Notes: generated from the sequence alone by a model not told the origin. Positions 1-26,450 are shown, counted from the stretch's first letter. The stretch: DNA of 26,450 nucleotides from an uncultured virus (IMG/VR IMGVR_UViG_3300023371_004674) (IMGVR_UViG_3300023371_004674), one strand, 5' to 3'. A program made the numbers and translations.

Positions 1-821
1 TCCGCCTCCTCCTCCGAGAGCAGAGCCTCGTGCATTTTCTCTCCCTTTCTCGCCCCGATGATCTCTACGGGGTAGTCCTTCGGGAGATTGAGGTATCTGC
101 ACACGGCGTTTGCGAGGTCGCCCGTTGTGCAGGCCTTGGACTGTTTTACGAGCAGGTCGCCGTTCCGTCCCACGATGAATGCTTTCTCGACCAAATCGGT
201 GGCTTCATCGACGGTCATCATAAAGCGTGTCATATCGGGATCGGTAATGGTAATCGGGAGTCCGTTCTGTACCTGCTCTATAAAGAGCGGTACAGCACTG
301 CCTCTCGATGCTACGAGGTTTCCGAATCTCGTAACGCAGATCTCTGTGCGGTTTTGGTCTGCCGCCCTTTGCAGAGCGAGCTTTTCCATATATGCTTTCG
401 TCATACCCATAGCGGACGTGGGGTAAACTGCCTTGTCGGTTGATAAACAGACAATCTTCTTTACCTTCTTCTGAACCGCCGAGGTTATGACGTTGTTGCT
501 TCCTTCGATGTTCGTTCTTACAGCTTCCATAGGGAATGCTTCGCAAGAGGGGACTTGCTTCATAGCGGCGGCGTGGAATACGTAATCAACGCCGTACATC
601 GCCACGTCTATCGAATGCTTATCCCTGACATCTCCGAGATAGAATTTGATGTTATCGTACTGACGGTAACGCTGTGCCATATCGTACTGCTTTTTCTCGT
701 CTCGGCTGAAGATGCGAACCTCCGCCGCACCCTGTTCCAAGCATTTGTCGAGAAAGGCGTTGCCGAACGTGCCTGTTCCGCCGGTGATGAGGATAACCGA
801 GTTTGCAATTCCTACGCTCAT
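1..821 (-). CDS. UDP-N-acetylglucosamine 4,6-dehydratase (FnlA/CapE/WbjB-like extended SDR), 3'-truncated by the window
   Basis: Not in the ORF track. Manual translation from ATG 821: MSVGIANSVILITGGTGTFGNAF...IFSRDEKKQ...GDVRD...HAAAMKQVPSCEAFPMEAVRTN...LSTDKAVYPTSAMGMTKAYMEK...TRFGNLVASRGS...DPDMTRF...GARKGEKMHEALL. Open to position 1. ATGA overlap with the upstream stop. Confidence 0.92.
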   Translation of the reverse strand, partial: MSVGIANSVILITGGTGTFGNAFLDKCLEQGAAEVRIFSRDEKKQYDMAQRYRQYDNIKFYLGDVRDKHSIDVAMYGVDYVFHAAAMKQVPSCEAFPMEAVRTNIEGSNNVITSAVQKKVKKIVCLSTDKAVYPTSAMGMTKAYMEKLALQRAADQNRTEICVTRFGNLVASRGSAVPLFIEQVQNGLPITITDPDMTRFMMTVDEATDLVEKAFIVGRNGDLLVKQSKACTTGDLANAVCRYLNLPKDYPVEIIGARKGEKMHEALLSEEEA

Positions 822-2023
822 ACTTCTCTCACCGCCTTTACAATAGCATCAACGATGTATCTCTGCTGTTCCTCTGTCAGCTCCGTGTGATAGGGGATAG
901 TGAGCAGATTCTTGAACATCTCGTATGCGTTCGGATAATCGGCGATGTCGAAGCCGATCTCCTTATATGCGGTCATCATCGGGAGGGGCTTGTAATGGAC
1001 GTTGCAAGGAACGCCAACCTCTCTCAATGCGTGATATACCTTATCCCTGCCGCTTTCCGCTCCTTCCGGGAGGTTGAGGCGTACAGGGTACAAGTGCATA
1101 GCGGATTGATAATCCTCTCCGAAATGCTTGATGAGGGGAGTGGCTTCTGCGACATTGGCGAACAGAGCATCGAAGCGTTCCGTAACTTCTCTGCGTTTGC
1201 TCTCGATCTCATCAAGCCTGTCAAGCTGAGCTACGCCCATCGCCGCATCAATGTTCGTCATAATGCTGTTATAACCGAACAGGGCGATGTCGTATTCCCA
1301 ACCCTTGCTTTTATCCCTCGATGTCTGCCCGTGATCTCCGAGCAGGCGGAGGGTTTCTTCCATCTTCTCATTATCGAAATGAGGGAAGTCCTTCCAAACG
1401 AGAGCACCGCCCTCTCCGCCCGTCGTGATGTTTTTCAGCACGTGGAACGAGAAGCAGGTGAAGTCCGCCCATTCTCCGCTCTTGGCGTTGTAGGACGAAG
1501 CACCAAAACTGTGAGCTGCATCGGCAACCACGGCGACTCTGCCGATTGCTTTTTGCAGCTCATTTGAGGGTGTGAATATATCTCGTTTGGAGGCTACGGC
1601 GGACAGGAGACTATAATAATCACACAGCTTACCGCCAATGTCAACGGGCATAACCGCCTTGGTTTTCTCCGTGATCGCCGCCGCAACCTTTTCGTAATCC
1701 ATCTCGAACGTCTTGCCGTCGAGGTCCACAAATACGATTGTTGCACCTACATTGCGGATGACCTCCGCTGTGGCTGAGTAGGTATAAGGTGTCGTAATCA
1801 CCTCATCGCCGGGACCGATACCGAGAACACGGAGAGCCATTTCCATTGCCGCCGTGCAACTGTCGAATGCAACCGCTCTGCTTGCGTTGCAGATCTTGGC
1901 GATTTTCTGTTCAAACTCACGGACTATGGGACCGTTCGTGAGCCATCTTGTCTCGGCAGCCTTGCCGATGTTATCTACTTCCGCTTTGGTAATGTCGGGA
2001 GTGGCGAATCTGATGTCATTCAT
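818..2023 (-). CDS. DegT/DnrJ/EryC1/StrS PLP-dependent nucleotide-sugar aminotransferase
   Basis: Motifs GIGPGDEVITTPYTY, DAAHSFGA and FSFHVLKNITTGGEGG (PLP lysine). Start moved to ATG 2023 behind a GAGGAGG RBS. Confidence 0.93.
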   Translation of the reverse strand: MNDIRFATPDITKAEVDNIGKAAETRWLTNGPIVREFEQKIAKICNASRAVAFDSCTAAMEMALRVLGIGPGDEVITTPYTYSATAEVIRNVGATIVFVDLDGKTFEMDYEKVAAAITEKTKAVMPVDIGGKLCDYYSLLSAVASKRDIFTPSNELQKAIGRVAVVADAAHSFGASSYNAKSGEWADFTCFSFHVLKNITTGGEGGALVWKDFPHFDNEKMEETLRLLGDHGQTSRDKSKGWEYDIALFGYNSIMTNIDAAMGVAQLDRLDEIESKRREVTERFDALFANVAEATPLIKHFGEDYQSAMHLYPVRLNLPEGAESGRDKVYHALREVGVPCNVHYKPLPMMTAYKEIGFDIADYPNAYEMFKNLLTIPYHTELTEEQQRYIVDAIVKAVREV

Positions 2024-2651
2024 CGTTGCCCTCCTCAACCGGTTCTTCAGGCGGAAGCTCATCTACTCCGATAATCTGTGCTTTCATCTTATCGTACCAA
2101 ACGGCTCTGCCCTTGATCCTGCGGGTTTTTGCTACCTTAACCGTACCGCCCTCGATGCCGAGCTTGCGGATAAGGTCGTTATAGTCGAGTTCGTTTCTGC
2201 AAGCAATAAGAACGTAATCGTACTGCTCGTAATGGATCGGCTCCATATCCTTGATGCTACGCTCCTCGATAGGCTTTTCGGGGGCTTCAAGGTCGAGCTT
2301 GAAATCGCCCATCAGGTCTGCGGTCCAATCTCCGAGCTCTTCGAGATCCCATTCTCCTGCGTGGCTATTCAACTTGATGTTGACGTACTTCTGCTCGGCT
2401 ACCGTGTAGCCAATCAGGAGCTTACACACCACGATCTCATCGGGGTTCTTTCTCTGCAAAATCGTGACTCTCTGATTTCCGCCGATGACCTGATTCTTTT
2501 CATTGATGACGATTATATCAAAATCGCCATACTTTTCAAGGGAATCTTCGAGGTCTTCACGCTTCTGCTTTTTGATTTTTCTCGGATTTCCGAAGTCGAG
2601 CTTCAGGTCGCCAACCCTACGCTCTACAACTTCAATGCGTTTTCCTTCCAT
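2016..2651 (-). CDS. ParB/Srx N-terminal domain protein
   Basis: LKLDFGNPRKI...LEDSLEKYG...IIVINEKNQVIGGNQRV...NIKLNSHAGEWD is the phage ParB-like pattern. GGAGGT RBS before ATG 2651. Confidence 0.82.
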   Translation of the reverse strand: MEGKRIEVVERRVGDLKLDFGNPRKIKKQKREDLEDSLEKYGDFDIIVINEKNQVIGGNQRVTILQRKNPDEIVVCKLLIGYTVAEQKYVNIKLNSHAGEWDLEELGDWTADLMGDFKLDLEAPEKPIEERSIKDMEPIHYEQYDYVLIACRNELDYNDLIRKLGIEGGTVKVAKTRRIKGRAVWYDKMKAQIIGVDELPPEEPVEEGNDE

Positions 2652-2676
2652 ATTGCTTACCTCCAAAAATAAAAAT

Positions 2677-2701
2677 AGCACCACGGGAGCTCCGTAGTGC
2701 T
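2677..2701 (-). terminator. Terminator-like hairpin in the leader of the ParB-like gene
   Basis: Minus strand AGCACTACGG-AGCTC-CCGTGGTGCT followed by ATTTTTATTTTT. Confidence 0.55.
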
Positions 2702-2736
2702 TTCAAGCGTCCAATCTCGGTCGCCTGATTTTTTCT

Positions 2737-2830
2737 ATTATACATCATAGCACAGGTCAAACGTGAATTTCAATGAAACTGACCGAAATTGGCTGAAATC
2801 GAATGAATTTTACTGAATTTTCCTGAAAGA
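2737..2830 (-). promoter_or_regulatory. Putative activator-dependent late promoter: seven 10-bp-phased repeats plus extended -10
   Basis: Plus strand 2761-2830: acgTGAAttt caaTGAAact gacCGAAatt ggcTGAAatc gaaTGAAttt tacTGAAttt tccTGAAaga. On the minus strand this is followed by TGTGCTATGATGTATAAT. Confidence 0.7.
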
Positions 2831-2834
2831 TAAA

Positions 2835-2896
2835 TCGTATGACAAGAAATAGTTTCTTCCTATACCATTATAGAGAAGCAATTTCCTGTCATACGA
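2835..2896. repeat. 62-bp imperfect inverted repeat
   Basis: TCGTATGACAAGAAATAGTTTCT...AGAAGCAATTTCCTGTCATACGA with inner CTATA-CCAT-TATAG. Confidence 0.8.
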
Positions 2897-2906
2897 AAAA
2901 ACTTTT

Positions 2907-3299
2907 TTATAAAGTCTCGATGTCAACCAAAGGAACGTACCTTTTTCTGTTGTTTGCGTAGTAAACAACGCCGCATTCAATGCGAGTGTTGATGTGTCTT
3001 CCTATGCAGATTCGCTCGGATCCGTCAGGTTGATAATCTATATCTCCCCAAAGGTAGGCATCCACAACTACCGTCTTGGTTCCTACGAACATTCCCTCGA
3101 ACTGTGCATCCACACGCTTGTAATAGGTTTTCAGGAACTCCAACGCTCCGATGCACTCGCACTTGTCGGGAACGTCATCTCCCTCTCCGATGTAGCGAAC
3201 TTCTTCTATGAAGCCGTATTTCTCGTCGCACTCTAAGCATCTTCCATCGTTCACTTTTTTGAGATATGAGGAGCAGCGAACCTTTCTGAACTCAAACAT
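2907..3299 (-). CDS. Hypothetical phage protein
   Basis: GGAGG RBS; packed directly behind the upstream ORF. Confidence 0.75.
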   Translation of the reverse strand: MFEFRKVRCSSYLKKVNDGRCLECDEKYGFIEEVRYIGEGDDVPDKCECIGALEFLKTYYKRVDAQFEGMFVGTKTVVVDAYLWGDIDYQPDGSERICIGRHINTRIECGVVYYANNRKRYVPLVDIETL

Positions 3300-3300
3300 T

Positions 3301-3588
3301 TTAGCATCCTCCTTTCAGGTATCCACGCATAGCGTCTTCCCAAATTTTCCTTTCCATATCCTTTTTCAGCTCTTCGAGATCAATCGTTACTACCGTGTTC
3401 TCGGCAACCTTGACGTTTCGGTAATCGTGCTTGACGATGAGCGGAGCCGCAAGCGGCTGGGTAACATCTGCTGTTGCCGATGCCATAACCGGTTCAGGAA
3501 GGTATCCAAGCATCTCCATTTCTTTATGGTCGCAGGTGTCGAAGAACGGACACCTTGCACATCCTTCGGCTATCTTTGATAATCCCAT
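3301..3588 (-). CDS. Hypothetical protein with N-terminal Cys cluster
   Basis: CARCPFFDTC; operon packing. Confidence 0.7.
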   Translation of the reverse strand: MGLSKIAEGCARCPFFDTCDHKEMEMLGYLPEPVMASATADVTQPLAAPLIVKHDYRNVKVAENTVVTIDLEELKKDMERKIWEDAMRGYLKGGC

Positions 3589-3958: not shown

Positions 3959-4262
3959 CGTTGCTCTCCTTTCTGTCATCCCACTCTCCAAGACAATGGA
4001 GCTTGTAGAGCTTCTTGTTTTCTTCATTCTGCTTTTGAATCGCTTTGACGAACATATCGCACACCTTTGGCTGAGCAAAAATGGTCGTGCCGAAAACTAC
4101 GAATGTTCCGTTGTCAGGAACCTCCTTATATCCGTAGCGTTTCTCCCATTTCTTGTTGATGCGTTTCTTTCTGTGAGTTCGGCATTGAACCCACTTAACC
4201 ACCGATTTGGATTCTACAATCCTGTATCCGAGGTATTCAGCTCTTACTTTATCTATATCCAT
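3951..4262 (-). CDS. Hypothetical phage protein
   Basis: RTHRKKRINKKWEKRYGY motif, which I recall from small phage proteins; overlaps its neighbours. Confidence 0.7.
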   Translation of the reverse strand: MDIDKVRAEYLGYRIVESKSVVKWVQCRTHRKKRINKKWEKRYGYKEVPDNGTFVVFGTTIFAQPKVCDMFVKAIQKQNEENKKLYKLHCLGEWDDRKESNDG

Positions 4263-4741
4263 TTCGACTTATGCCCGCCTCTCAGTATATTTATGGCTTG
4301 CTCCACGTGATGTTCTTGCAATCCACCGTCATCATCGTAGAAGCTGGTCTTGACGAGCCTATCCATAAGGTTGCACAGCTCATAATCGAAGCATTCATCA
4401 TCGAGGATAACGAATGATTCTACTATGTGCTCATCGAGCCAGTTGAGAATGCCTTCACCACGCATCGAACAATTTGGATCTGTCGTTTTGTCGAGGATGC
4501 GTAATCCCTCTCGCTTCAACTTTTGGTCGAGGTAGTGTCCTTCGGGATCCTGCTCCTCTTTATGATATTTCCACCACCCGATTTTCCAAGACGAGCTGAG
4601 GACAATTTTGGCATCGGTGGCATCTACGATTTTCTTCAGGAGCTTGACCTTTTTTGAATCAACCCCTATAAAACCTCTGCATTTCGCTTCGGTCTTCTGG
4701 CAGTTGAGAACTCCATCTACGTCGAGAAATATAACCTTCAT
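4253..4741 (-). CDS. HAD-superfamily phosphatase of the 'Swiss Army Knife' RNA-repair type (HAD_SAK_2-like)
   Basis: MKVIFLDVDGVLN (DxD motif I), IVLSSSWK, RGEGILNWL, FVILDD. Confidence 0.85.
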   Translation of the reverse strand: MKVIFLDVDGVLNCQKTEAKCRGFIGVDSKKVKLLKKIVDATDAKIVLSSSWKIGWWKYHKEEQDPEGHYLDQKLKREGLRILDKTTDPNCSMRGEGILNWLDEHIVESFVILDDECFDYELCNLMDRLVKTSFYDDDGGLQEHHVEQAINILRGGHKSKWI

Positions 4742-7957: not shown

Positions 7958-9136
7958 TTACTCCGATGCCTTGAAATTGTACTGCGGTTTCATCAGGTCA
8001 ATCACTCCGCAGGTGGGGCGGATGAGCTTTCTGATCTCATCTGCGTCCTTGTAAGCCATAGGAGCTTCGTCGATGGTTCCGTAGCCTACGCTCGTAGTGA
8101 AAATTCCTTCCATAGATGCCACGTAGTCCTCGGCAGAAATCGTTTCTTTTGCTTTCTTCCGGGACATAATGCGTCCAGCTCCGTGCGGAGCGGAATAGTT
8201 CCAATCAGGATTACCAAGACCGGTACAAAGGAAAACGCCGTCTCTCATATTCATAGGGATAACGAGATATTCACCGAGCTGGGCGGATACCGCACCCTTT
8301 CTCAAAATCTTGTTTTGCAGGTCAATGTAGTTGTGAGTGGTATGGAATAGCCATCCAGAGTGTTTGAGGCTCATACCACGCAAAATTTCGTTTGCTATTG
8401 CTTCCCGATTCGCTTTCGCATACTGCTGAACGATACCCATATCGTTGAGGTAGTCGTCGAGATCCTGACCTTCGAGGTATGCGAGGTCTTTCTGCTTTTT
8501 TGCATCTCTGTACTGTGCCTTTACCTTTTCGATGGCTTCTTGGATCTCATTCTGTCTGCCTTGCTCCTTGTAGGTCTTGGCAATATCTTTGATGAGGTCT
8601 GCGGGCGGAGTGGAAATACGCTTGACCGCCAACTGCTGATAGTAATTAGCGACCTCCAATCCGAGATGTCTGCTTCCGCTGTGGATAATCAACCAAAGAC
8701 CGCCGCAGGAGTCTTTGTCGATTTCGATGAAATGGTTTCCGCCGCCGAGCGTTCCGAGTGAGAGCAACGCCCTCTGCTTGTCAGCTACGGGACATCTCAA
8801 TTTATCGAAGTCGAATGCCGCAACGGGTTTCGTTCTTATCATCATACCCGAAGGGACCGAGCTACGTATCACCTTGTCGAGCTCGGCGTAATCAATCTTG
8901 GTTTCATCGAGCTTGACAGCGAACATACCGCATCCGATGTCAACTCCTACGAGGTTAGGGCATACACGGTCGGTAATCGTCATCGTGGTTCCGATGGTGC
9001 AACCCGCACCAGCGTGTACGTCTGGCATAATGCGGATCTTCGAGCCATCGCTTACGGGATGCTCGGCGAGAGCTTCAATTTGAGCCAATGCTTCAGGCTC
9101 GATGGTCTCTGCAAAAATCTGTACATCGTTAGTCAT
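7958..9136 (-). CDS. rtcB: RtcB family RNA ligase (3'-phosphate/2',3'-cyclic phosphate to 5'-OH)
   Basis: RIMPDVHAG, VGVDIGCGM, GTLGGGNHFIE, HSGSR, HNY, RKGA, SAPHGAGR, DEAPMAYK. Start at ATG 9136 behind GGAGG. Confidence 0.95.
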   Translation of the reverse strand: MTNDVQIFAETIEPEALAQIEALAEHPVSDGSKIRIMPDVHAGAGCTIGTTMTITDRVCPNLVGVDIGCGMFAVKLDETKIDYAELDKVIRSSVPSGMMIRTKPVAAFDFDKLRCPVADKQRALLSLGTLGGGNHFIEIDKDSCGGLWLIIHSGSRHLGLEVANYYQQLAVKRISTPPADLIKDIAKTYKEQGRQNEIQEAIEKVKAQYRDAKKQKDLAYLEGQDLDDYLNDMGIVQQYAKANREAIANEILRGMSLKHSGWLFHTTHNYIDLQNKILRKGAVSAQLGEYLVIPMNMRDGVFLCTGLGNPDWNYSAPHGAGRIMSRKKAKETISAEDYVASMEGIFTTSVGYGTIDEAPMAYKDADEIRKLIRPTCGVIDLMKPQYNFKASE

Positions 9137-9707
9137 TGCAGGCCTCCTTGTATTTTCTGATGATTTCGAGCATCTGTTCTTTCGCTCTTTCGGTCTCAAC
9201 CGAGTGTCCGGGGACTCCTTCGAATTCACGGACGAACATTTCAAGCTCAGACGCTTCATCTTCTGCGATTTTCGTAATCAAGATGGACGGGCTTCCTTTA
9301 ACCACGGTCAGCTCCATCAGATCTCCCTCTCGAATCCTCAACGCTTTGCGGAACTCTCTCGGAACGACGATTCTTCCCAAATCGTCTATTCTTCGTGTGA
9401 TAACCGGTCCGCTGTAAAATCCCAAATTCTTCTTTTCGGTCAGGACTTTCTCGCATTTTTCGTAGGATTCGAGGAACTCGCCTCCGCTCGAAAGAAAATC
9501 TTTCAGTACGAAATAGATCTCGTCAACAATCCCATCTTCTGGGACCGCTTTCTTGTATTCTTCAGGAGTTACGCCTTCTGCTGCTTCTCCTCCGAAATAG
9601 AACCATTCATCGCCGATCTGACATACAGTTCCATCTCGGTTAGGCGAATCAATCAGCCTAACAATTCCGTTTCGGTATCCTTCCAAAATCATACGTTGAG
9701 TAATCAT
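9129..9707 (-). CDS. Unknown N-terminal domain fused to an AbrB/SpoVT DNA-binding domain
   Basis: ITRRIDDLGRIVVPREFRKALRIREGDLMEL is the AbrB/SpoVT signature. Start at ATG 9707 behind GAGGAGG. Confidence 0.8.
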   Translation of the reverse strand: MITQRMILEGYRNGIVRLIDSPNRDGTVCQIGDEWFYFGGEAAEGVTPEEYKKAVPEDGIVDEIYFVLKDFLSSGGEFLESYEKCEKVLTEKKNLGFYSGPVITRRIDDLGRIVVPREFRKALRIREGDLMELTVVKGSPSILITKIAEDEASELEMFVREFEGVPGHSVETERAKEQMLEIIRKYKEACND

Positions 9708-12128: not shown

Positions 12129-12623
12129 TCAGGTATCGTCTTTCTTGGTCGCCTCTATGTAACGAGCCATATTTGCGAGGGCGGAGCCGTGTATGTTGTA
12201 CATCGTTCTCTCGTAAGACTCTTCCTTATCGAAGAAATCAGGTCTATCGCCGAACAGAACATCGAGGACATCGTTCCATCGCATTCCGTCGAAGTATCGC
12301 ATCCTGATGACCGCCCTTTCGTTTGCGTGTCGAAGACGTTTGATGATCTTTTCGAGCTCGGTACGCTCTTTCTTTTGCTTGGCTATCATCTGCTTTATTT
12401 CATTTTCAAGGTCGATCTTCTGGCACACCAAATCAGCCATTCTGCTTTGCGATGGGCTTGGATCTCTCGGCATACCAGAGTATGAGGGGGAACCGATGCT
12501 TTTCAGTTTCATCTCAATTCGGTCAAGTCGCTGCTCCTGAAGCTCTATATCTCGGTCTGCGGCGAGATAGTCTTCCAGCCGCTCCTTGACAAAATCAGTA
12601 TTTGGTCTTTTCTTATTCGCCAT
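12129..12623 (-). CDS. ArpU/RinA (DUF1492-like) late transcriptional activator
   Basis: SPSYSGMP, coiled coil, ERAVIRMRYFDGMRWNDV...YNIHGSAL sigma-region-4-like C-terminus; last gene of the replication module. Confidence 0.8.
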   Translation of the reverse strand: MANKKRPNTDFVKERLEDYLAADRDIELQEQRLDRIEMKLKSIGSPSYSGMPRDPSPSQSRMADLVCQKIDLENEIKQMIAKQKKERTELEKIIKRLRHANERAVIRMRYFDGMRWNDVLDVLFGDRPDFFDKEESYERTMYNIHGSALANMARYIEATKKDDT

Positions 12624-12652
12624 CGGTTTCTCCTCATCTCCTTTCTTGAAAA

Positions 12653-12988
12653 TTACTTGCTTTGCTGTTCGCCGAGCTTCTCGGCATACCACGCCTCAAT
12701 ATCTACGCCGATCTCTTTCAGCTTCCTCGTGTAGAGCCAGCCCATTTCTTCGGGTTCGAGTTGATAAAACGCTCTCAACGCTTCGTGCTCCTCGAAGCAT
12801 CTGTCGAAGAACCTACGAAGCCTTTTCTTGCCGTGCTTATGGACGAGATGGATAACCCACAGAACCATAGCATCGTTTTCCATAGCGAACTTTCTGTCTC
12901 TTTCAATGATCTGGCGGTCGATCTCTTCATCTCTCGCCTTGATCTGCTTTTTCGACATCAATTTGCTCGGCAATATTCTTGCTTTCAT
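12653..12988 (-). CDS. Hypothetical phage protein
   Basis: LWVIHLVHKHGKKRLRRFFD pattern, which I recall from Firmicutes phage proteins; RBS present. Confidence 0.75.
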   Translation of the reverse strand: MKARILPSKLMSKKQIKARDEEIDRQIIERDRKFAMENDAMVLWVIHLVHKHGKKRLRRFFDRCFEEHEALRAFYQLEPEEMGWLYTRKLKEIGVDIEAWYAEKLGEQQSK

Positions 12989-12992
12989 AGGC

Positions 12993-13769
12993 TTACTCCT
13001 TCCAAGGAAATTCTGTAATGAGGTCTTCTCCCCAAATCGGTATCAGGCTGTCCTTCATAAATACGGGCTTGCCGCATTTGTGGAACTGCTCAACGATGGG
13101 CTCCATCCAAGAGCGTTCAGGAACTACCTTATCTTTTCTGTTGCCTGTCTCCGCTCCGAGAATAACCCACCCAATTCTCTTTGCGAAATCCTCGCATCCT
13201 TCATCCTCTACAAAGGGTTCGAGGATAGGCTCGATGCTTGCGAACGTGTTGTACTCGTCGCTCCAGAAGCATTTTGTGGTCGGCGATGTAACGGTCGAGC
13301 CGTACCAGTAATTGTCTCCTTTGGGGAGCAACCCTTTTCGAGCGAGCTCTGCATATCGCTTCGGGTTCTTTGTGAGGAACAGGTAGCGGTGGTTATCCGC
13401 TTTCTTGCAAGCGTCGAAAATCTTTTCGATCCACTCGTCAGGCACCCAATCCCCGAACATATCTGACATAGAGCATACAAAGATGTTCTTTCCGAATCCT
13501 TTTGTGTACGGATCCGACAGTCTATATTCGTGGAGCGTGGGAGTGAACCCGAACGGATATGCGGCGTTTCTTACCTCGCCGTTCTGTGTGGTCGCCTGAA
13601 GCCTCTCGCCGAGCGTTACAATTTCCGCCGGAGCTACGCCATCGGGAGACTCGTGACAACCTTTGTAGCGGTTGGCTATCCGTCTGGCGTAGCAGTATTT
13701 GCAATCGTGGTAGCATCCGGTTATCGGATTCCAAGAACTATCGCACCATTCGATTTTTGTCTTTTCCAT
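12993..13769 (-). CDS. DUF5131 (phage Gp37/Gp68) radical-SAM-like protein
   Basis: TKIEWCDSSWNPITGCYHDCKYCYA (CxxxCxxC), IFVCSMSDMF, FLTKNP, SIEP, WVILGAETG, VFMK. Confidence 0.9.
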   Translation of the reverse strand: MEKTKIEWCDSSWNPITGCYHDCKYCYARRIANRYKGCHESPDGVAPAEIVTLGERLQATTQNGEVRNAAYPFGFTPTLHEYRLSDPYTKGFGKNIFVCSMSDMFGDWVPDEWIEKIFDACKKADNHRYLFLTKNPKRYAELARKGLLPKGDNYWYGSTVTSPTTKCFWSDEYNTFASIEPILEPFVEDEGCEDFAKRIGWVILGAETGNRKDKVVPERSWMEPIVEQFHKCGKPVFMKDSLIPIWGEDLITEFPWKE

Positions 13770-21692: not shown

Positions 21693-22025
21693 ATGGACTA
21701 CTCATTTTTCAGGGAAAATCTCAAAAATCTTCTCAGCGTGAGAGGGTACACCATCAAGGGCTTTGCCGCAGAAATCAATGCGAGTGCAGCTACGATCTCT
21801 CGCTACCTATCGGGCGACAGAACGCCTGACCTCCCCTATGTCGTAAACATTGCGTCATTTTTCAACGTATCCATCGACTGGCTTCTCGGTATCAATGGCG
21901 ACCAATTTGATGTAATGCCGAAAGAGGTTCAAGAGGTTGCAAGCCTATATTCTCTTGCTTCTCCCGATGACCGCCGTGTAATTCAAGCGGTTCTCGGCAA
22001 GTATCGAAAGGGTGGCGACAAATGA
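21693..22025 (+). CDS. CI-like XRE repressor without a peptidase domain
   Basis: TIKGFAAEINASAATISRYLSGDRTPD...IASFFNVSIDWLLG; 110 aa. Confidence 0.9.
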   Translation: MDYSFFRENLKNLLSVRGYTIKGFAAEINASAATISRYLSGDRTPDLPYVVNIASFFNVSIDWLLGINGDQFDVMPKEVQEVASLYSLASPDDRRVIQAVLGKYRKGGDK

Positions 22026-23251
22026 TCTACACCGAAAGAATGTCCCGCTCGGCTATTCACGTAGATCCCAACGGACAAGCATCGGTTATGAAGCGAATTC
22101 CATTTATGACGGGCAGTTTCAACGAGGCTTGGCTTCAGGAAATACTCGCCGACAATCCTTTTATCATTCCTTCCTACGAGGTAGGCTCCGAATATGCGCC
22201 TCTCGTCTGTATCGGAAGAGAGGTTCCGGTCGGCAGCGGCGAAACAAAGGGATATATCGACAATCTCTACATCACACCTTCAGGTCAAATCGTCATAGTC
22301 GAAACAAAACTGTTCAGGAATCAGGAATCGAGGCGTACCGTCGTTGCTCAAATCATCGACTATGCCAAGGAACTGCAAAAGTGGGACTGCGAGATGCTAA
22401 ACAAGGTCGCAGAGGAATACACGTTCAAATCCGAAGGTCAGTCGAAACGCATCATAGACATTATGGCTTCGAAGGGGTGCTTGACTTTCGCTGATGAAGC
22501 GAGGCTCACCGACAGAATAAACGATTCTCTCAAAAGAGCATCGTTCTTACTGATGATAATTGGCGACGGTATCCGTTCCAGCGTTCAGCAGTTGGCTGAC
22601 TTCCTGAACGAAAATACCTCTATGGCTTTCAATCTCGCTCTTGCCGAGATGGAGATATACCAGACCGAGAACGGCGTAATCGTCATCCCCAACCTTTTGG
22701 CAAAGACATCTGTAATCGAGCGTAACATCGTGAGCATTCACGGATCCTACGTCGATGAGGAAACGGAGTCGGAATCGGTTTCTCCGAGCAAATACATTCG
22801 TAAGCCTATGCTCACAAGACGTGAGTTCATATCCAAGTTCTGCGAGAACGGTGGCTACGATGCAGATGAGGTTGGCGAATTCATAGCAGATCTCGATGCA
22901 ATAGGCGGTATCAACATTTCTCTTTCTCCCACCGAGCTTGCGGTCAAATTCGTTCTTGGAGAGGGAAAGACCTGCTCACTCGTAATCTTCGGCATAGCGA
23001 GCGACCAAGCGGACATTTGGCTCGTTCCCGGAAGAATCAAGGCTTCGCTCGAAAAGAACGGCGTATTCCCGTTTGATGCCGACGATTTCCTCGATTTCTA
23101 CAAAGAGGTGGTGGACGACAGCAGATGCAAGACTCCTCCGTATGATAATGTCGCAGGATTCTACTACGCCGACGTAAACGAGGTTCTACACCGCAAGCAA
23201 GATTTCATACGAGCTGTTGAGCAGTTCATAACCGCAATACAGAAAAACTGA
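22022..23251 (+). CDS. NucS/DUF91-like PD-(D/E)xK nuclease with an unknown C-terminal domain
   Basis: EAWLQ...IGREV...GYIDNL...IVIVETKL...RRTVVAQIIDYA (D..ExK plus QxxxY); ATGA overlap with cI. Confidence 0.75.
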   Translation: MIYTERMSRSAIHVDPNGQASVMKRIPFMTGSFNEAWLQEILADNPFIIPSYEVGSEYAPLVCIGREVPVGSGETKGYIDNLYITPSGQIVIVETKLFRNQESRRTVVAQIIDYAKELQKWDCEMLNKVAEEYTFKSEGQSKRIIDIMASKGCLTFADEARLTDRINDSLKRASFLLMIIGDGIRSSVQQLADFLNENTSMAFNLALAEMEIYQTENGVIVIPNLLAKTSVIERNIVSIHGSYVDEETESESVSPSKYIRKPMLTRREFISKFCENGGYDADEVGEFIADLDAIGGINISLSPTELAVKFVLGEGKTCSLVIFGIASDQADIWLVPGRIKASLEKNGVFPFDADDFLDFYKEVVDDSRCKTPPYDNVAGFYYADVNEVLHRKQDFIRAVEQFITAIQKN

Positions 23252-23356: not shown

Positions 23357-23434
23357 CGGTGGAAAATCCGCAGACTGTCCCGTGGACTGTCCTATCTTTT
23401 GTCCCATACTACAAATTCAAAGAGGAGGCAAACA

Positions 23435-25156
23435 ATGAGCAGTTACATTTCCGATGCGATCTCTACCCAAAAGGTCGCCATATATATTCGAGTCTCAACT
23501 GCTATGCAGATTGACAAAGACTCTTTACAAGTACAAAAGCGTGAGCTTACAGCATACTCCGAGATGGTTCTCGGCATAAAGGATTATGTCATATTCGAAG
23601 ATCCCGGCTACTCTGCAAAGAACACCGACCGCCCCGACTATCAACGTATGATGGAGCGTCTCCGCACAGGTGAGTTCTCTCATCTTCTCGTATGGAAGAT
23701 TGACCGTATCAGCAGAAACCTACTCGACTTCGCACAGATGTATGCCGAGCTGAAGCGTCTCGGTGTTGCGTTCGTGTCAAAGAACGAGCAGTTCGATACA
23801 AGCTCGGCAATAGGCGAGGCTATGCTGAAAATCATTCTCGTTTTTGCGGAGCTGGAGCGTAATATGACCTCCGAGCGTGTTACGGCAGTAATGCTTTCGA
23901 GAGCGAACAACGGTCAGTGGAACGGCGGCAGGGTTCCATACGGTTACAAATGGGATAAAGAGGCGAAGGAATTCTCCCTCATCGAATCCGAGGCGAAAAT
24001 CGTCCGCACCATCTACGATATGTACGAGGAATATCAATCTCTCGCCTACATCTGCCGTTGGCTTAACGAGAACAACTACCCAACAAAGAACGGCAAGGAA
24101 TGGAGCATTACCACAATCCACAAAATTCTGACAAATCCTTTTTACAACGGCTCATACCTATACAATGTTTACAAGGACGGAAAGGCTGTCAGCAAGCGAA
24201 AGCCAGACGACTGGATCGTGTTCGAGGATCATCACATAGCAATCGTAACTGTGGAGAGGTTCGACCGCATACAGTTCCTCCTGAAGCGTAACCGCAGGGG
24301 TGGAGTTCCCGAAACCGAAAGCTATGTGAGGAAGAATATCCACATCTTTGCAGGTATCACAAAATGCGGTGTCTGCGGAGCTCTTATGTCCGCCACGCTC
24401 GATAAGCGAAGAGCGGACGGATGGCGACCTTCCATTTACGGCTGTTCACGTCGAAGGAAGAACTCGTCTGTATGCTCGAACAAATACGTCTCCGATGCTG
24501 CATTAGGTCCGTTCGTGTTCAACTATGTCGCAAACATCATACGAGTCAAAAATTCTGGCAAAAAATATTCCCCTGAAACACTCGGCAAAAAGCTCCTTCA
24601 GGGAACAGCTTTCTTCTCGGTCGATCACATAGGAGCTTCGGGCCTCGAACAGCTATCTGATCTCTTGGCTCGTGGTGAGAGTGGTCTTGAATACAAGCCA
24701 TCTTATATCGTGGAAGAAACTGATGCCAAAGTGAGCGAGTACGAGATGCTTCGAGAAAAGCATCGCAAGCTGCAAACCGCTATGAACCGATTGCAGACAG
24801 TGTTCCTATACAACGAAGCAGAGACACCTCCGACCGAGTTCATTTTGGAGAGGGAGAAGATCACGAGCGAAATGTCCGCCATCGAGAAGCGAATGACTGA
24901 GCTCGGCGGAGAAGCGTTCGGAGACAAGATCACCGATGAATCGTTCCTGAAGAAAGCAAGCTATTTCATTATGGTCGAGAAACTGCTCGATGCAAAGAAC
25001 ATCGACTACGAGAAATACATTCGTGGCATAGACGAGCAGGTGCCGAGAAACTTTATCCTGAGCATCATCGAGAGAATAGATGTCACTGACGGTTGCGTGT
25101 CGGCGATCACATTCAAGAACGGAATGAAGCACGAATTTTTCTACAAAGAGCAATAA
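23435..25156 (+). CDS. Large serine recombinase (phage integrase)
   Basis: VAIYIRVST (catalytic Ser), DPGYSAKNTDRP, DRISRN, FAELER, GGRVPYGY, Zn ribbon CGVCG..C..C, coiled coil; ATG 23435 behind GAGGAGG. Confidence 0.95.
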   Translation: MSSYISDAISTQKVAIYIRVSTAMQIDKDSLQVQKRELTAYSEMVLGIKDYVIFEDPGYSAKNTDRPDYQRMMERLRTGEFSHLLVWKIDRISRNLLDFAQMYAELKRLGVAFVSKNEQFDTSSAIGEAMLKIILVFAELERNMTSERVTAVMLSRANNGQWNGGRVPYGYKWDKEAKEFSLIESEAKIVRTIYDMYEEYQSLAYICRWLNENNYPTKNGKEWSITTIHKILTNPFYNGSYLYNVYKDGKAVSKRKPDDWIVFEDHHIAIVTVERFDRIQFLLKRNRRGGVPETESYVRKNIHIFAGITKCGVCGALMSATLDKRRADGWRPSIYGCSRRRKNSSVCSNKYVSDAALGPFVFNYVANIIRVKNSGKKYSPETLGKKLLQGTAFFSVDHIGASGLEQLSDLLARGESGLEYKPSYIVEETDAKVSEYEMLREKHRKLQTAMNRLQTVFLYNEAETPPTEFILEREKITSEMSAIEKRMTELGGEAFGDKITDESFLKKASYFIMVEKLLDAKNIDYEKYIRGIDEQVPRNFILSIIERIDVTDGCVSAITFKNGMKHEFFYKEQ

Positions 25157-25376: not shown

Positions 25377-26450
25377 TTATCCTATAAACATCGCGTCGCC
25401 AAAGGAGAAAAATCTGTATTTTTCTTCTACAGCGGTCTTATATGCTTCCATTATTTTTTCTTTGCTGTAAAGCGCCGAAACAAGCATCAGCAGTGTACTT
25501 TCGGGCAAATGAAAATTGGTTATCAGCGCATCGACTGCCTTGAATTTGTAACCCGGATATATAAATATTCCCGTATCTCCGCTCATTTCGGGGATATGTC
25601 CGTTTTCTTCCGCAACACTTTCAATTGTGCGGCATGACGTTGTTCCTACGCAAATAAGCCGTCCTCCCTTGGCTTTTCGCTCATTTATTATCTCAGCGCT
25701 TTCCTTTGAAACGCTGAAATACTCGGTGTGCATTATATGCTCGTCAATGCGCTCTGCCTTAACCGGTCGAAAGGTTCCGAGTCCAACGTGAAGCATTACG
25801 GGAGCAATAGCCACGCCCTTATCCCTTATCCTTTGCAAAAGCTCCGGGGTGAAGTGCAATCCGGCAGTAGGCGCCGCCGCGCTTCCCTCTTCTCTTGCAT
25901 ATACGGTCTGATATCTTGAATTATCTCCAAGCTGTTCGGTAATATACGGGGGAAGGGGCATCATTCCCACAATAGACAATATTTCGTATATATTAGAATA
26001 CTTGTCCCTGTCGTAGGTGAATTTTATGAGTCTGTTTCCTTCCTCGACAATATCGACCACCTCGCCCTTGAGTATTCCCTTTCCAAAAACCGAGCGCATT
26101 CCGATCTTCGCTCTCTTTCCGGGACGAACAAGGGTCTCCCATGTGTCTATATCTCTCTGACGGAGAAGCAAAAGCTCAAGCGTTGCTTCTTCTCTACCCT
26201 CTACGTATCCGTATATTCTGGCGGGTATGACCTTTGAATCGTTTATTACAAGAACGTCATTGGGCTCAAGATAATCAACTATATCGTAAAAATGCTTATG
26301 TTCTATGCTTCCGATCTCGCGATCAAGAACCATCAGCCTTGAATGGTCCCGCTTCTCTGCGGGATGCTGAGCTATAAGCTCATCCGGCAGGTCGTAGAAG
26401 AAATCCGAGGTTTTAAGGTCGGTTGCCTTTTTTTCGTTGGTTATTATCAT
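25377..26450 (-). CDS. queA: S-adenosylmethionine:tRNA ribosyltransferase-isomerase (host gene)
   Basis: [82 protein letters not shown]. Confidence 0.98.

Follow-up and report, generated by a model that had tools for sequence, protein, structure and literature searches.

The stretch of DNA analysed here, 26,450 nucleotides from an uncultured virus (IMG/VR IMGVR_UViG_3300023371_004674; referred to below as the window), contains the start of the late operon of a temperate serine-integrase prophage that lies beside queA. The initial annotation had singled out a ParB-like gene, a DegT aminotransferase gene and an FnlA-type dehydratase gene at this place as an amino-sugar modification system of the phage. 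By following the operon beyond the window and through its relatives, we found that the conserved unit consists of the ParB-like gene, a TAGT-family glycosyltransferase (GT) gene and a gene whose product resembles the C-terminal domain of MgsA (MgsA_C-like), and that the DegT and dehydratase genes are an optional add-on. With moderate confidence, we propose that this module glycosylates the phage's own DNA after replication and before packaging; the modification itself is a prediction.

The conserved unit was recognized from three independent seeds, namely the GT, the MgsA_C-like protein and the ParB-like protein, each of which retrieved the same viral-contig neighbourhoods among its best 80 matches. 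Loci were collapsed by GT sequence and kept if they offered at least 5 kb upstream and at least 2.5 kb downstream, which left 69 of the 94 distinct GT sequences. In these full-context viral loci, the TAGT gene was accompanied by the ParB-like gene in 69/69 and by the MgsA_C-like gene in 68/69. The tailoring genes varied from locus to locus: PIG-L was present in 45 of the 69, WbqC in 41, DegT in 21, dehydratase in 20, ATP-grasp in 18, a PglD-like acetyltransferase in 16, UDP-galactopyranose mutase (GLF) and an ornithine/diaminopimelate-type decarboxylase in 11 each, GNAT in 8 and a second glycosyltransferase (GT2) in 1. Since DegT and the dehydratase occur in only 20-21 of the 69 loci, the proposed triad of ParB, DegT and FnlA is not the conserved unit; what does hold is that an arrangement of ParB, sugar genes and terminase recurs in gut and rumen phages. 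WbqC and ATP-grasp were never found in one locus (41 versus 18 loci, both in 0, neither in 10), and PIG-L accompanies WbqC in 40 of its 41 loci. A more distant seed set gave ParB together with the GT in 56 of 57 full-context loci, and 71 of 73 distant loci showed the bare order ParB>GT>MgsA_C without any of the tailoring families searched for. The trio was also found in 23 of 24 loci from species-representative bacterial genomes, whose hosts were Oscillospiraceae, Acutalibacteraceae, Lachnospiraceae, Ruminococcus, Peptostreptococcaceae, Treponema, Bacteroides and Parabacteroides. Where the gene order changes (for example in loci L052, L062 and L078), the ParB-like and MgsA_C-like genes shift together with the GT; L261 exemplifies the bare trio.

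The surroundings of the operon place it within a phage. The window corresponds to G000:C23:87385-113834, read on the reverse strand, and the 40 kb downstream of it were analysed as L003, in which a position equals 2836 minus the window position. At the right end of the window lies queA (25377-26450, minus strand), with a large serine recombinase (23399-25156) adjoining it and then a CI-like and Cro-like repressor pair; no exact repeats of at least 12 nt that could mark an att site were found. A long minus-strand run of early genes encodes two exonuclease-like proteins, RecT, a replication initiator, a DnaC-like loader, RusA and a single-stranded DNA-binding protein, and further DUF5131, DUF1492 (late-regulator-like), RtcB, YopX and HAD_SAK_2 proteins. 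In the last 2.8 kb of the window, the genes for the ParB-like protein (2016..2651), the DegT enzyme (818..2023) and the dehydratase (1..821) follow on the minus strand, with overlaps of 8 nt (ParB-like/DegT) and 4 nt (DegT/dehydratase) that are in line with translational coupling. All three genes thus lie where the initial annotation put them, overlapping and apparently coupled behind a promoter with repeats. The window edge cuts the operon, which runs on unbroken in the contig through genes for a PIG-L/LmbE deacetylase (L003:2989-3672), a WbqC-family protein (L003:3669-4463), the TAGT-family GT-A glycosyltransferase (L003:4460-5182, its start overlapping the WbqC stop), a NUMOD4/HNH homing endonuclease (L003:5238-5852) and the MgsA_C-like protein (L003:5852-6802). 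After these come an 86-aa protein, a probable small terminase (TerS), the large terminase (TerL, L003:7908-9263) and a portal fused to a NUDIX domain (L003:9280-12693). Beyond the portal, we found MuF, a cement protein, the major capsid protein, tail genes, a diversity-generating retroelement and a holin. The adjacent DNA supplies the GT and terminase genes that the initial annotation had suggested looking for there, together with portal, MuF and major capsid genes. The absence of wzx/wzy together with the presence of terminase, portal and capsid genes downstream identifies a phage operon and not a host capsule locus. These phage genes and the recurring arrangement support the earlier view of a phage-encoded late amino-sugar pathway as opposed to serotype conversion. 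The GC content at third codon positions (GC3) also agrees with the earlier remark that the codon style is that of the phage and unlike that of queA: it is 0.60-0.66 in the operon genes (0.60-0.64 in the three window genes), 0.52-0.63 in most other phage genes and 0.47 in queA, with lower values in the HNH gene (0.47) and TerS (0.49) and a genome GC of 0.446.

The two sugar enzymes encoded in the window were right in kind as first annotated. The dehydratase appears to be of the FnlA/CapE type, that is, a UDP-N-acetylglucosamine (UDP-GlcNAc) 4,6-dehydratase/5-epimerase of the short-chain dehydrogenase/reductase (SDR) class (Polysacc_synt_2, PF02719). The window holds 273 of its 324 aa, and the full-length gene ends at L003:2989 in the contig. 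Its best PDB matches were 4j2o (E 2.5e-96) and CapE (E 1.4e-92), and it scored 349 bits against the FnlA model TIGR04130, below the cut-off of 730. Its AMGMTK segment aligns with AMGISK of FnlA/CapE and so preserves the M-x-x-x-K pattern, whereas FlaA1/PseB has the catalytic Tyr at that place (LYGATK in FlaA1); the C-terminal ~40 aa differ. The DegT enzyme, a 401-aa sugar 4-aminotransferase of the pyridoxal-phosphate-dependent, PseC-like kind, matched PF01041 with 312.9 bits (E 4e-93), carries the SFHxxK lysine motif and had 6ewj as its best PDB match (E 3.6e-105). Among NCBIfam models it is nearest to PseC (TIGR03588, 288 bits, below the cut-off of 423.5). From homology, the product of the two enzymes should be a UDP-4-amino-4,6-dideoxy-N-acetylhexosamine (HexNAc), the stereochemistry of which cannot be read from sequence.

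The two enzymes that follow could act on the sugar at a later stage. The PIG-L protein scored 69.6 bits against PF02585 (cut-off 28.2), and its nearest models were BshB1 (NCBIfam, E 3.7e-15) and diacetylchitobiose deacetylase. Residues 6-13 read VVAHPDDE, in which AHPDDE is the N-terminal metal motif of PIG-L deacetylases. Enzymes of this group (MshB, BshB, PIG-L) deacetylate GlcNAc that is already joined to its aglycone. For the WbqC protein, structure matching and the literature yielded no solved or characterised relative. A sister cassette carries another set of genes: at L064:3428-5206, a 592-aa fusion of DegT and a hexapeptide acetyltransferase adjoins a GFO_IDH_MocA oxidoreductase (2407-3462), which points to a 3-amino-sugar-type route and not to the 4,6-dehydratase route.

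The initial annotation was correct that the window contains no transferase; one is encoded 1.6 kb past its edge. This 240-aa GT matched PHROG 842, 'beta-glucosyl-HMC-alpha-glucosyltransferase' (HMC, hydroxymethylcytosine), with E 2.7e-8. We found 253 homologues, many of which bear the PF20691 (TAGT) label, and all 30 of the 30 aligned relatives, 52-87% identical, matched TAGT at E <= 0.01 (best 1.8e-12). The AlphaFold2 model of the GT (mean predicted local distance difference test, pLDDT, 87.5) has a GT-A fold according to its PDB matches, with TarP among the fold matches. The nearest viral models were TAGT-domain phage proteins and the T-even HMC glucosyltransferase, with template-modelling (TM) scores of 0.70-0.78. 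The DxD motif is represented by LDDD, in which D84 and D85 are invariant, and the sequence has no hydrophobic segment. Searches of 50,697 isolated-phage records by tblastn with the GT and of PDB sequences with the GT profile both returned zero matches. A complex prediction for the GT with the ParB-like and MgsA_C-like proteins scored 0.01, which carries no weight either way.

Of its two partners, the ParB-like protein (ParB/Srx-like, 211 aa) starts at an ATG at position 2651 behind GGAGG. Over residues 4-136 it matched PHROG 620, 'ParB-like partition protein', with E 1.7e-20. It contains the motifs GNPRK and GGNQR, and N22, P23, R24, G58 and R61 are invariant across 21 relatives, 3 of which gave a marginal match to ParB_N of Pfam. 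The nearest ESM-Atlas clusters are labelled 'putative ParB', with ParB_N in 18% of their members. Pfam detected no HTH_ParB or other helix-turn-helix DNA-binding domain in the protein or its relatives.

The MgsA_C-like protein (316 aa) was modelled as all-alpha with a pLDDT of 85.9. In VIA-align, fragments of the MgsA/RarA C-terminal domain were the best matches for residues 16-108 and 112-200, with Z of 8.5, 8.4 and 8.2 to 2qw6, 2r9g and 8g28 (root-mean-square deviation, rmsd, 1.4-2.3) and 7.2 to E. coli MgsA, bearing in mind that Z below ~13 can be common among helical folds. The family profile matched the PDB entries 3bge (E 3.8e-5), 3ctd (4.5e-4) and RarA 3pvs (6.8e-3), and MgsA_C occurs in 11% of the members of the Atlas neighbours. 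The single sequence had no Pfam match, and Foldseek of the model against the PDB gave none at E <= 0.001, its top-ranked entries being MgsA fragments (E 0.4-1.3). Overall, the protein is similar in sequence and fold to the MgsA/RarA C-terminal domain (PF12002). The AAA+ ATPase module is absent and a single His is invariant; with its all-alpha fold, the protein is therefore no TET/JBP jelly roll. At E <= 0.001 the family numbers 2238 cluster representatives, and cellular MgsA will be among them. It includes short forms of ~200 aa without the second helical domain; no fused or longer forms appeared in a dedicated search or among the best 150 of the 2238 profile matches. We also considered a helical oxygenase and dropped this identity, given the low Z and high rmsd (7y3w, Z 7.1; 8z4q, Z 6.1, rmsd 4.3) and the lack of conserved metal ligands. 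One locus, L137, has the MgsA_C-like gene without a GT and, ~2.2 kb upstream, a classical 472-aa ParB with ParB_N and HTH_ParB (L137:1456-2874), so that the link between the family and the transferase is not a strict one. The HNH gene between the GT and MgsA_C-like genes encodes a NUMOD4/HNH_3/I-HmuI-like protein. A tblastn match to it was found in 5 of 80 GT-seeded loci, and in contigs of three animal-gut runs from two studies L003:5276 is linked to 5963, with 146 different letters where the HNH gene would stand. Missing from most relatives and replaced in these contigs, it is a free-standing mobile insertion.

The 5' end of the operon has the features of a regulated late promoter. A sigma-70-like promoter, TTGAAA-18-TATGAT with an upstream TG (2744..2773, minus strand, 10/12 matches), is preceded by four copies of a ~25-nt motif (2764..2828, minus strand). 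The copies are phased at 10/20/10 bp, lie 5' of the -35 element and overlap it, and are candidate late-activator sites. The 92-nt leader (window 2652-2743, minus strand) has a minimum free energy of -30.4 kcal/mol (z -5.04) and would form two hairpins. The second, at 2677..2701 on the minus strand, is a terminator-like stem of 10 bp (6 GC) with a T-run, just 5' of the ribosome-binding site and 26 nt before the start codon. In an alignment, read by eye, with the upstream regions of 6 relatives, the repeats, promoter and hairpin were kept in most, and in most the stems differ in their letters yet still pair. A terminator-like hairpin between promoter and ribosome-binding site implies that the late operon is controlled by antitermination or by an activator, and the layout resembles that of an activator- or antiterminator-controlled late promoter. 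The DUF1492 gene (12129-12692) is a candidate antiterminator or activator for it. An Rfam scan of the entire window returned zero families. Two metatranscriptome runs contain parts of the operon, in contigs that span sugar and structural genes alike; as DNA carry-over is possible, these runs say nothing on the timing of expression.

We propose the following course of events. From homology, the FnlA/CapE-type SDR would turn host UDP-GlcNAc into UDP-4-keto-6-deoxy-HexNAc, and the DegT enzyme would aminate C4 to give UDP-4-amino-4,6-dideoxy-HexNAc. The TAGT-family GT-A enzyme, on the strength of its family-level homology, fold and DxD motif, would then pass the sugar to the acceptor. Going by the activity of PIG-L/LmbE enzymes, the deacetylase may strip the 2-N-acetyl group from the attached sugar, and WbqC, replaced by an ATP-grasp ligase in sister cassettes, may tailor the freed amine. 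The outcome would be a cationic or acylated amino sugar with its amines at C4 and C2 free or acylated. The transferase would have the ParB-like and MgsA_C-like proteins as its fixed partners. On the model of the ParB-dependent phage thymine dioxygenases, the former may load or hold the enzyme on double-stranded DNA (dsDNA), and the latter is perhaps an oligomeric DNA or adaptor subunit. Injected DNA would, as a likely benefit, be shielded from restriction and CRISPR nucleases, and the swaps of tailoring genes between relatives look like the trace of an arms race.

A number of observations weigh against the proposal that DNA is the acceptor. The window phage's own GT scored only 18.2 bits (E 0.0025) against Pfam TAGT PF20691, below the cut-off of 27.5. 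The ParB-like protein of the window has no Pfam match itself, so that its likeness to ParB rests on PHROGs and the Atlas; its profile found no ParB in the PDB (a chance EngA match only), and hhalign against one classical ParB, that of L137, gave a probability <1%, with the NPRK segment aligned. The enzymes that commonly prepare a base for glycosylation were also looked for. Tet_JBP (PF12851) had 0 matches in the phage's own genome, which is 95% complete, 0 in 100 related viral records (two 50-record scans, 29 of the records at least 90% complete; no control genome was positive at the threshold) and 0 in a further 5-record scan of relatives. A thymidylate-synthase homologue (PF00303) was found in 0 of the 29 near-complete relatives, with the control positive in 10 of 14, and Pfam scans of the listed prophage open reading frames (ORFs) gave none either. 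A C5-methyltransferase was present in 6 of the 29. A complete 42.9-kb phage with direct terminal repeats (G004) carries the cassette in the order MgsA_C-like>ParB>TAGT>GT2>terminase and lacks methyltransferase, thymidylate synthase and TET by Pfam. DUF5131 (phage Gp37/Gp68; window 12993-13769, minus strand), which has a weak radical S-adenosylmethionine match at its N-terminus, was considered as a base-modifying partner and dropped, as it occurs in only 1 of 5 related records. With no enzyme found that makes 5-hydroxymethylcytosine (5hmC), 5-hydroxymethyluracil (5hmU) or 5-hydroxycytosine (5hoC), the acceptor on DNA could possibly come from an undetected hydroxylase or from new chemistry. Finally, GREB1, a TAGT relative in animals, is reported to O-GlcNAcylate a protein (PMC7968844), and the family is therefore not bound to DNA.

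Proteins of the virion or other phage proteins are accordingly one alternative target. The capsid, tail or packaging proteins might be decorated, as an antibody shield or for mucus binding, with the ParB-like and MgsA_C-like proteins serving packaging. Virion glycosylation is known from mycobacteriophages, the late operon lies directly 5' of the structural genes, and the precedent of GREB1 and the missing acceptor-making enzyme would both be accommodated. On the other hand, the ParB-like and MgsA_C-like genes stand within the sugar cluster and travel with the GT (as in L052, L062 and L078), the bare three-gene cassette is contiguous in 71 of 73 distant loci, and in structure the GT comes closest to models of phage TAGT proteins and HMC glucosyltransferase. 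ParB homologues are moreover documented as partners of DNA-base-modifying enzymes (PMC13229309). We regard protein glycosylation as unlikely. Another alternative is lysogenic conversion, in which a host surface polymer such as teichoic acid, capsule or S-layer glycan is altered and superinfection blocked. In its favour, O-antigen and capsule loci are where the FnlA/CapE, DegT, PIG-L and WbqC families are best known, and prophage GT-A enzymes for teichoic acid do exist, with TarP among the fold matches of the GT. Lysogenic conversion is nevertheless very improbable: the operon has no flippase, polymerase, initiating phosphotransferase or membrane protein, the GT lacks a hydrophobic segment and its fixed partners are DNA-associated folds. 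Moreover, the sugar genes share a transcription unit with terminase, downstream of the leader terminator, and the flanks consist of phage early genes on one side and terminase, portal and capsid, without wzx/wzy, on the other.

Two further explanations concern how DNA would come to bear the sugar. In an ordinary route, a divergent 5-methylpyrimidine dioxygenase (5mYOX) or hydroxylase missed by Pfam, or the MgsA_C-like protein itself, would make 5hmU or 5hmC for the GT. Thousands of contigs retrieved by phage 5mYOX profiles have no TET/JBP annotation by Pfam (PMC13229309), and the Pfam model annotates 83-95% of the contigs retrieved by the profiles of O'Toole et al. (PMC13229309). Many ORFs of the present phage belong to no family, and the weak matches of the MgsA_C-like protein to the all-helical oxygenases 7y3w and 8z4q would fit. 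By contrast, this protein is all-alpha, is no jelly roll and has one invariant His, Tet_JBP was found in 0 of the 100 records, and the three-gene cassette travels without a fourth conserved gene. We hold this route possible though doubtful; as a special case of DNA glycosylation, it shares in the probability given to that proposal and does not add to it. A bolder version, which we offer as a speculation and rate as rather unlikely, takes the ParB-like protein, TAGT and the MgsA_C-like protein as a self-sufficient, dioxygenase-independent machine. The sugar would go directly onto a canonical position of DNA, such as an exocyclic amine or the ends made by terminase, while a ParB-like clamp and an MgsA_C-like oligomer present the DNA and bolt-on genes diversify the glycan. 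If this were true, the present phage would attach a doubly aminated 6-deoxy-hexose, making its DNA locally cationic.

Several other genes of the phage deserve mention. An RtcB RNA ligase (window 7958-9259, minus strand) and a HAD_SAK_2 'Swiss-army-knife RNA repair' phosphatase domain (4253-4741, minus strand) probably counter host anticodon nucleases; RtcB was found too in the relative L033. A 409-aa ORF on the plus strand (22022-23251) adjoins the CI-like repressor and could be placed in no family of Pfam or PHROG. Read by eye, its IVIVETK segment is PD-(D/E)XK-like, and the ORF is a candidate nuclease or defence gene expressed in the lysogen. In the portal protein (1137 aa, Phage_portal_3), residues 562-670 form the NUDIX hydrolase domain; nucleotide sugars are among the compounds that NUDIX enzymes can hydrolyse, and a tie between this domain and the sugar module is possible. 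The diversity-generating retroelement (L004:12544-15766) comprises an FGE-sulfatase/C-type-lectin-like target, bAvd and a reverse transcriptase, just 5' of the holin.

If the proposed sugar is indeed present on virion DNA, it would be the first amino-dideoxy-hexosamine on DNA, and it would mean that phages import entire bacterial surface-sugar pathways to diversify their DNA glycans. As a defined unit of three genes, the cassette could serve for probing new acceptor chemistry. Prophages of gut and rumen Clostridia and Bacteroidales commonly carry it, and it therefore bears on the evasion of restriction and CRISPR and on how gut-phage DNA behaves in sequencing. A candidate cultured lysogen is Parabacteroides faecalis AGMB00274, whose locus L258 comprises GLF, GNAT, ParB, ATP-grasp, GT, decarboxylase and MgsA_C-like genes. 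The TAGT name is said to go back to Iyer et al. in 2013, who reportedly also discussed ParB. Phage GT-A and GT-B enzymes place hexose, HexNAc and heptose glycans on 5hmC, and ~65% of the GT contigs, which had no 5mYOX or thymidylate synthase nearby, were left unexplained (Pyle 2023, bioRxiv 10.1101/2023.12.21.572611); some of these contigs may be explained by the cassette described here. Burke 2021 (PMC8256090) cites the idea of modification being directed by ParB during packaging. Literature on WbqC, on ParB with TAGT and on hypermodification with a deacetylase or ATP-grasp, taken without Iyer et al. 2013 and the supplements of Pyle et al., contained no description of the cassette. PIG-L, WbqC, DegT and MgsA in such a setting are unmentioned in the texts and supplements searched, and MgsA is unmentioned in the main text and the 12 supplement files of PMC13229309 that were searched as text.

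Among known systems, the tailoring steps of the cassette recall, as an analogy of chemistry only, the logic of mycothiol and bacillithiol synthesis, in which a PIG-L deacetylase works with a second enzyme, as the ATP-grasp ligase of the sister loci might; context and acceptor differ here. With the early steps of the UDP-L-FucNAc and pseudaminic-acid pathways it shares a probable 4,6-dehydratase/5-epimerase with the M-x-x-x-K motif, followed by a C4 aminotransferase. Unlike in the FnlA/PseC pathways, both enzymes fall below the NCBIfam equivalog cut-offs, and they are followed not by the FnlB reductase, FnlC epimerase, PseH, PseG or PseI but by PIG-L, WbqC and a DNA-type GT. Late transfer of a sugar to DNA, as proposed here, is known from the T-even glucosylation of HMC, whose enzymes the present GT resembles through PHROG 842, and from the arabinosyl-5hoC of RB69 and DLP3, where the phage encodes the supply of nucleotide sugar as here (PMC13326640). 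In that type, however, a thymidylate-synthase homologue makes the modified nucleotide before replication (PMC13326640), whereas no such homologue occurs in the 29 near-complete relatives and the present phage has no DNA polymerase. The 5hmC GT clusters that depend on a methyltransferase and a 5mYOX resemble ours in their TAGT-family GT-A enzyme, modular secondary enzymes and metavirome-wide spread (PMC8256090; bioRxiv 10.1101/2023.12.21.572611). They need a C5-methyltransferase and TET (here 6/29 and none found) and transfer hexose, HexNAc or heptose, whereas the present phage encodes a 4-amino-4,6-dideoxy-HexNAc pathway and a deacetylase. The ParB-dependent 5mYOX clusters form a further comparison. 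In one subclass of phage thymine dioxygenases, activity on dsDNA depends on a ParB homologue, and this homologue keeps its nucleotide-binding and C-terminal domains without a DNA-binding domain (O'Toole et al., PNAS 2026, PMC13229309). The commonest neighbours of phage 5mYOX are GTs (31%), ParBs (27%), terminases (19%) and endonucleases (17%) (PMC13229309). Our locus likewise has an apparent short ParB homologue, with a putative nucleotide-binding-type N-terminal domain and no detected DNA-binding domain, adjoining GT, terminase and endonuclease genes; as the phage has no polymerase of its own, its logic too would be post-replicative. It differs from these clusters in that no TET/JBP gene was found in the genome or the 100 related viral records, and in having a conserved MgsA_C-like partner and a set of nucleotide-sugar tailoring genes.

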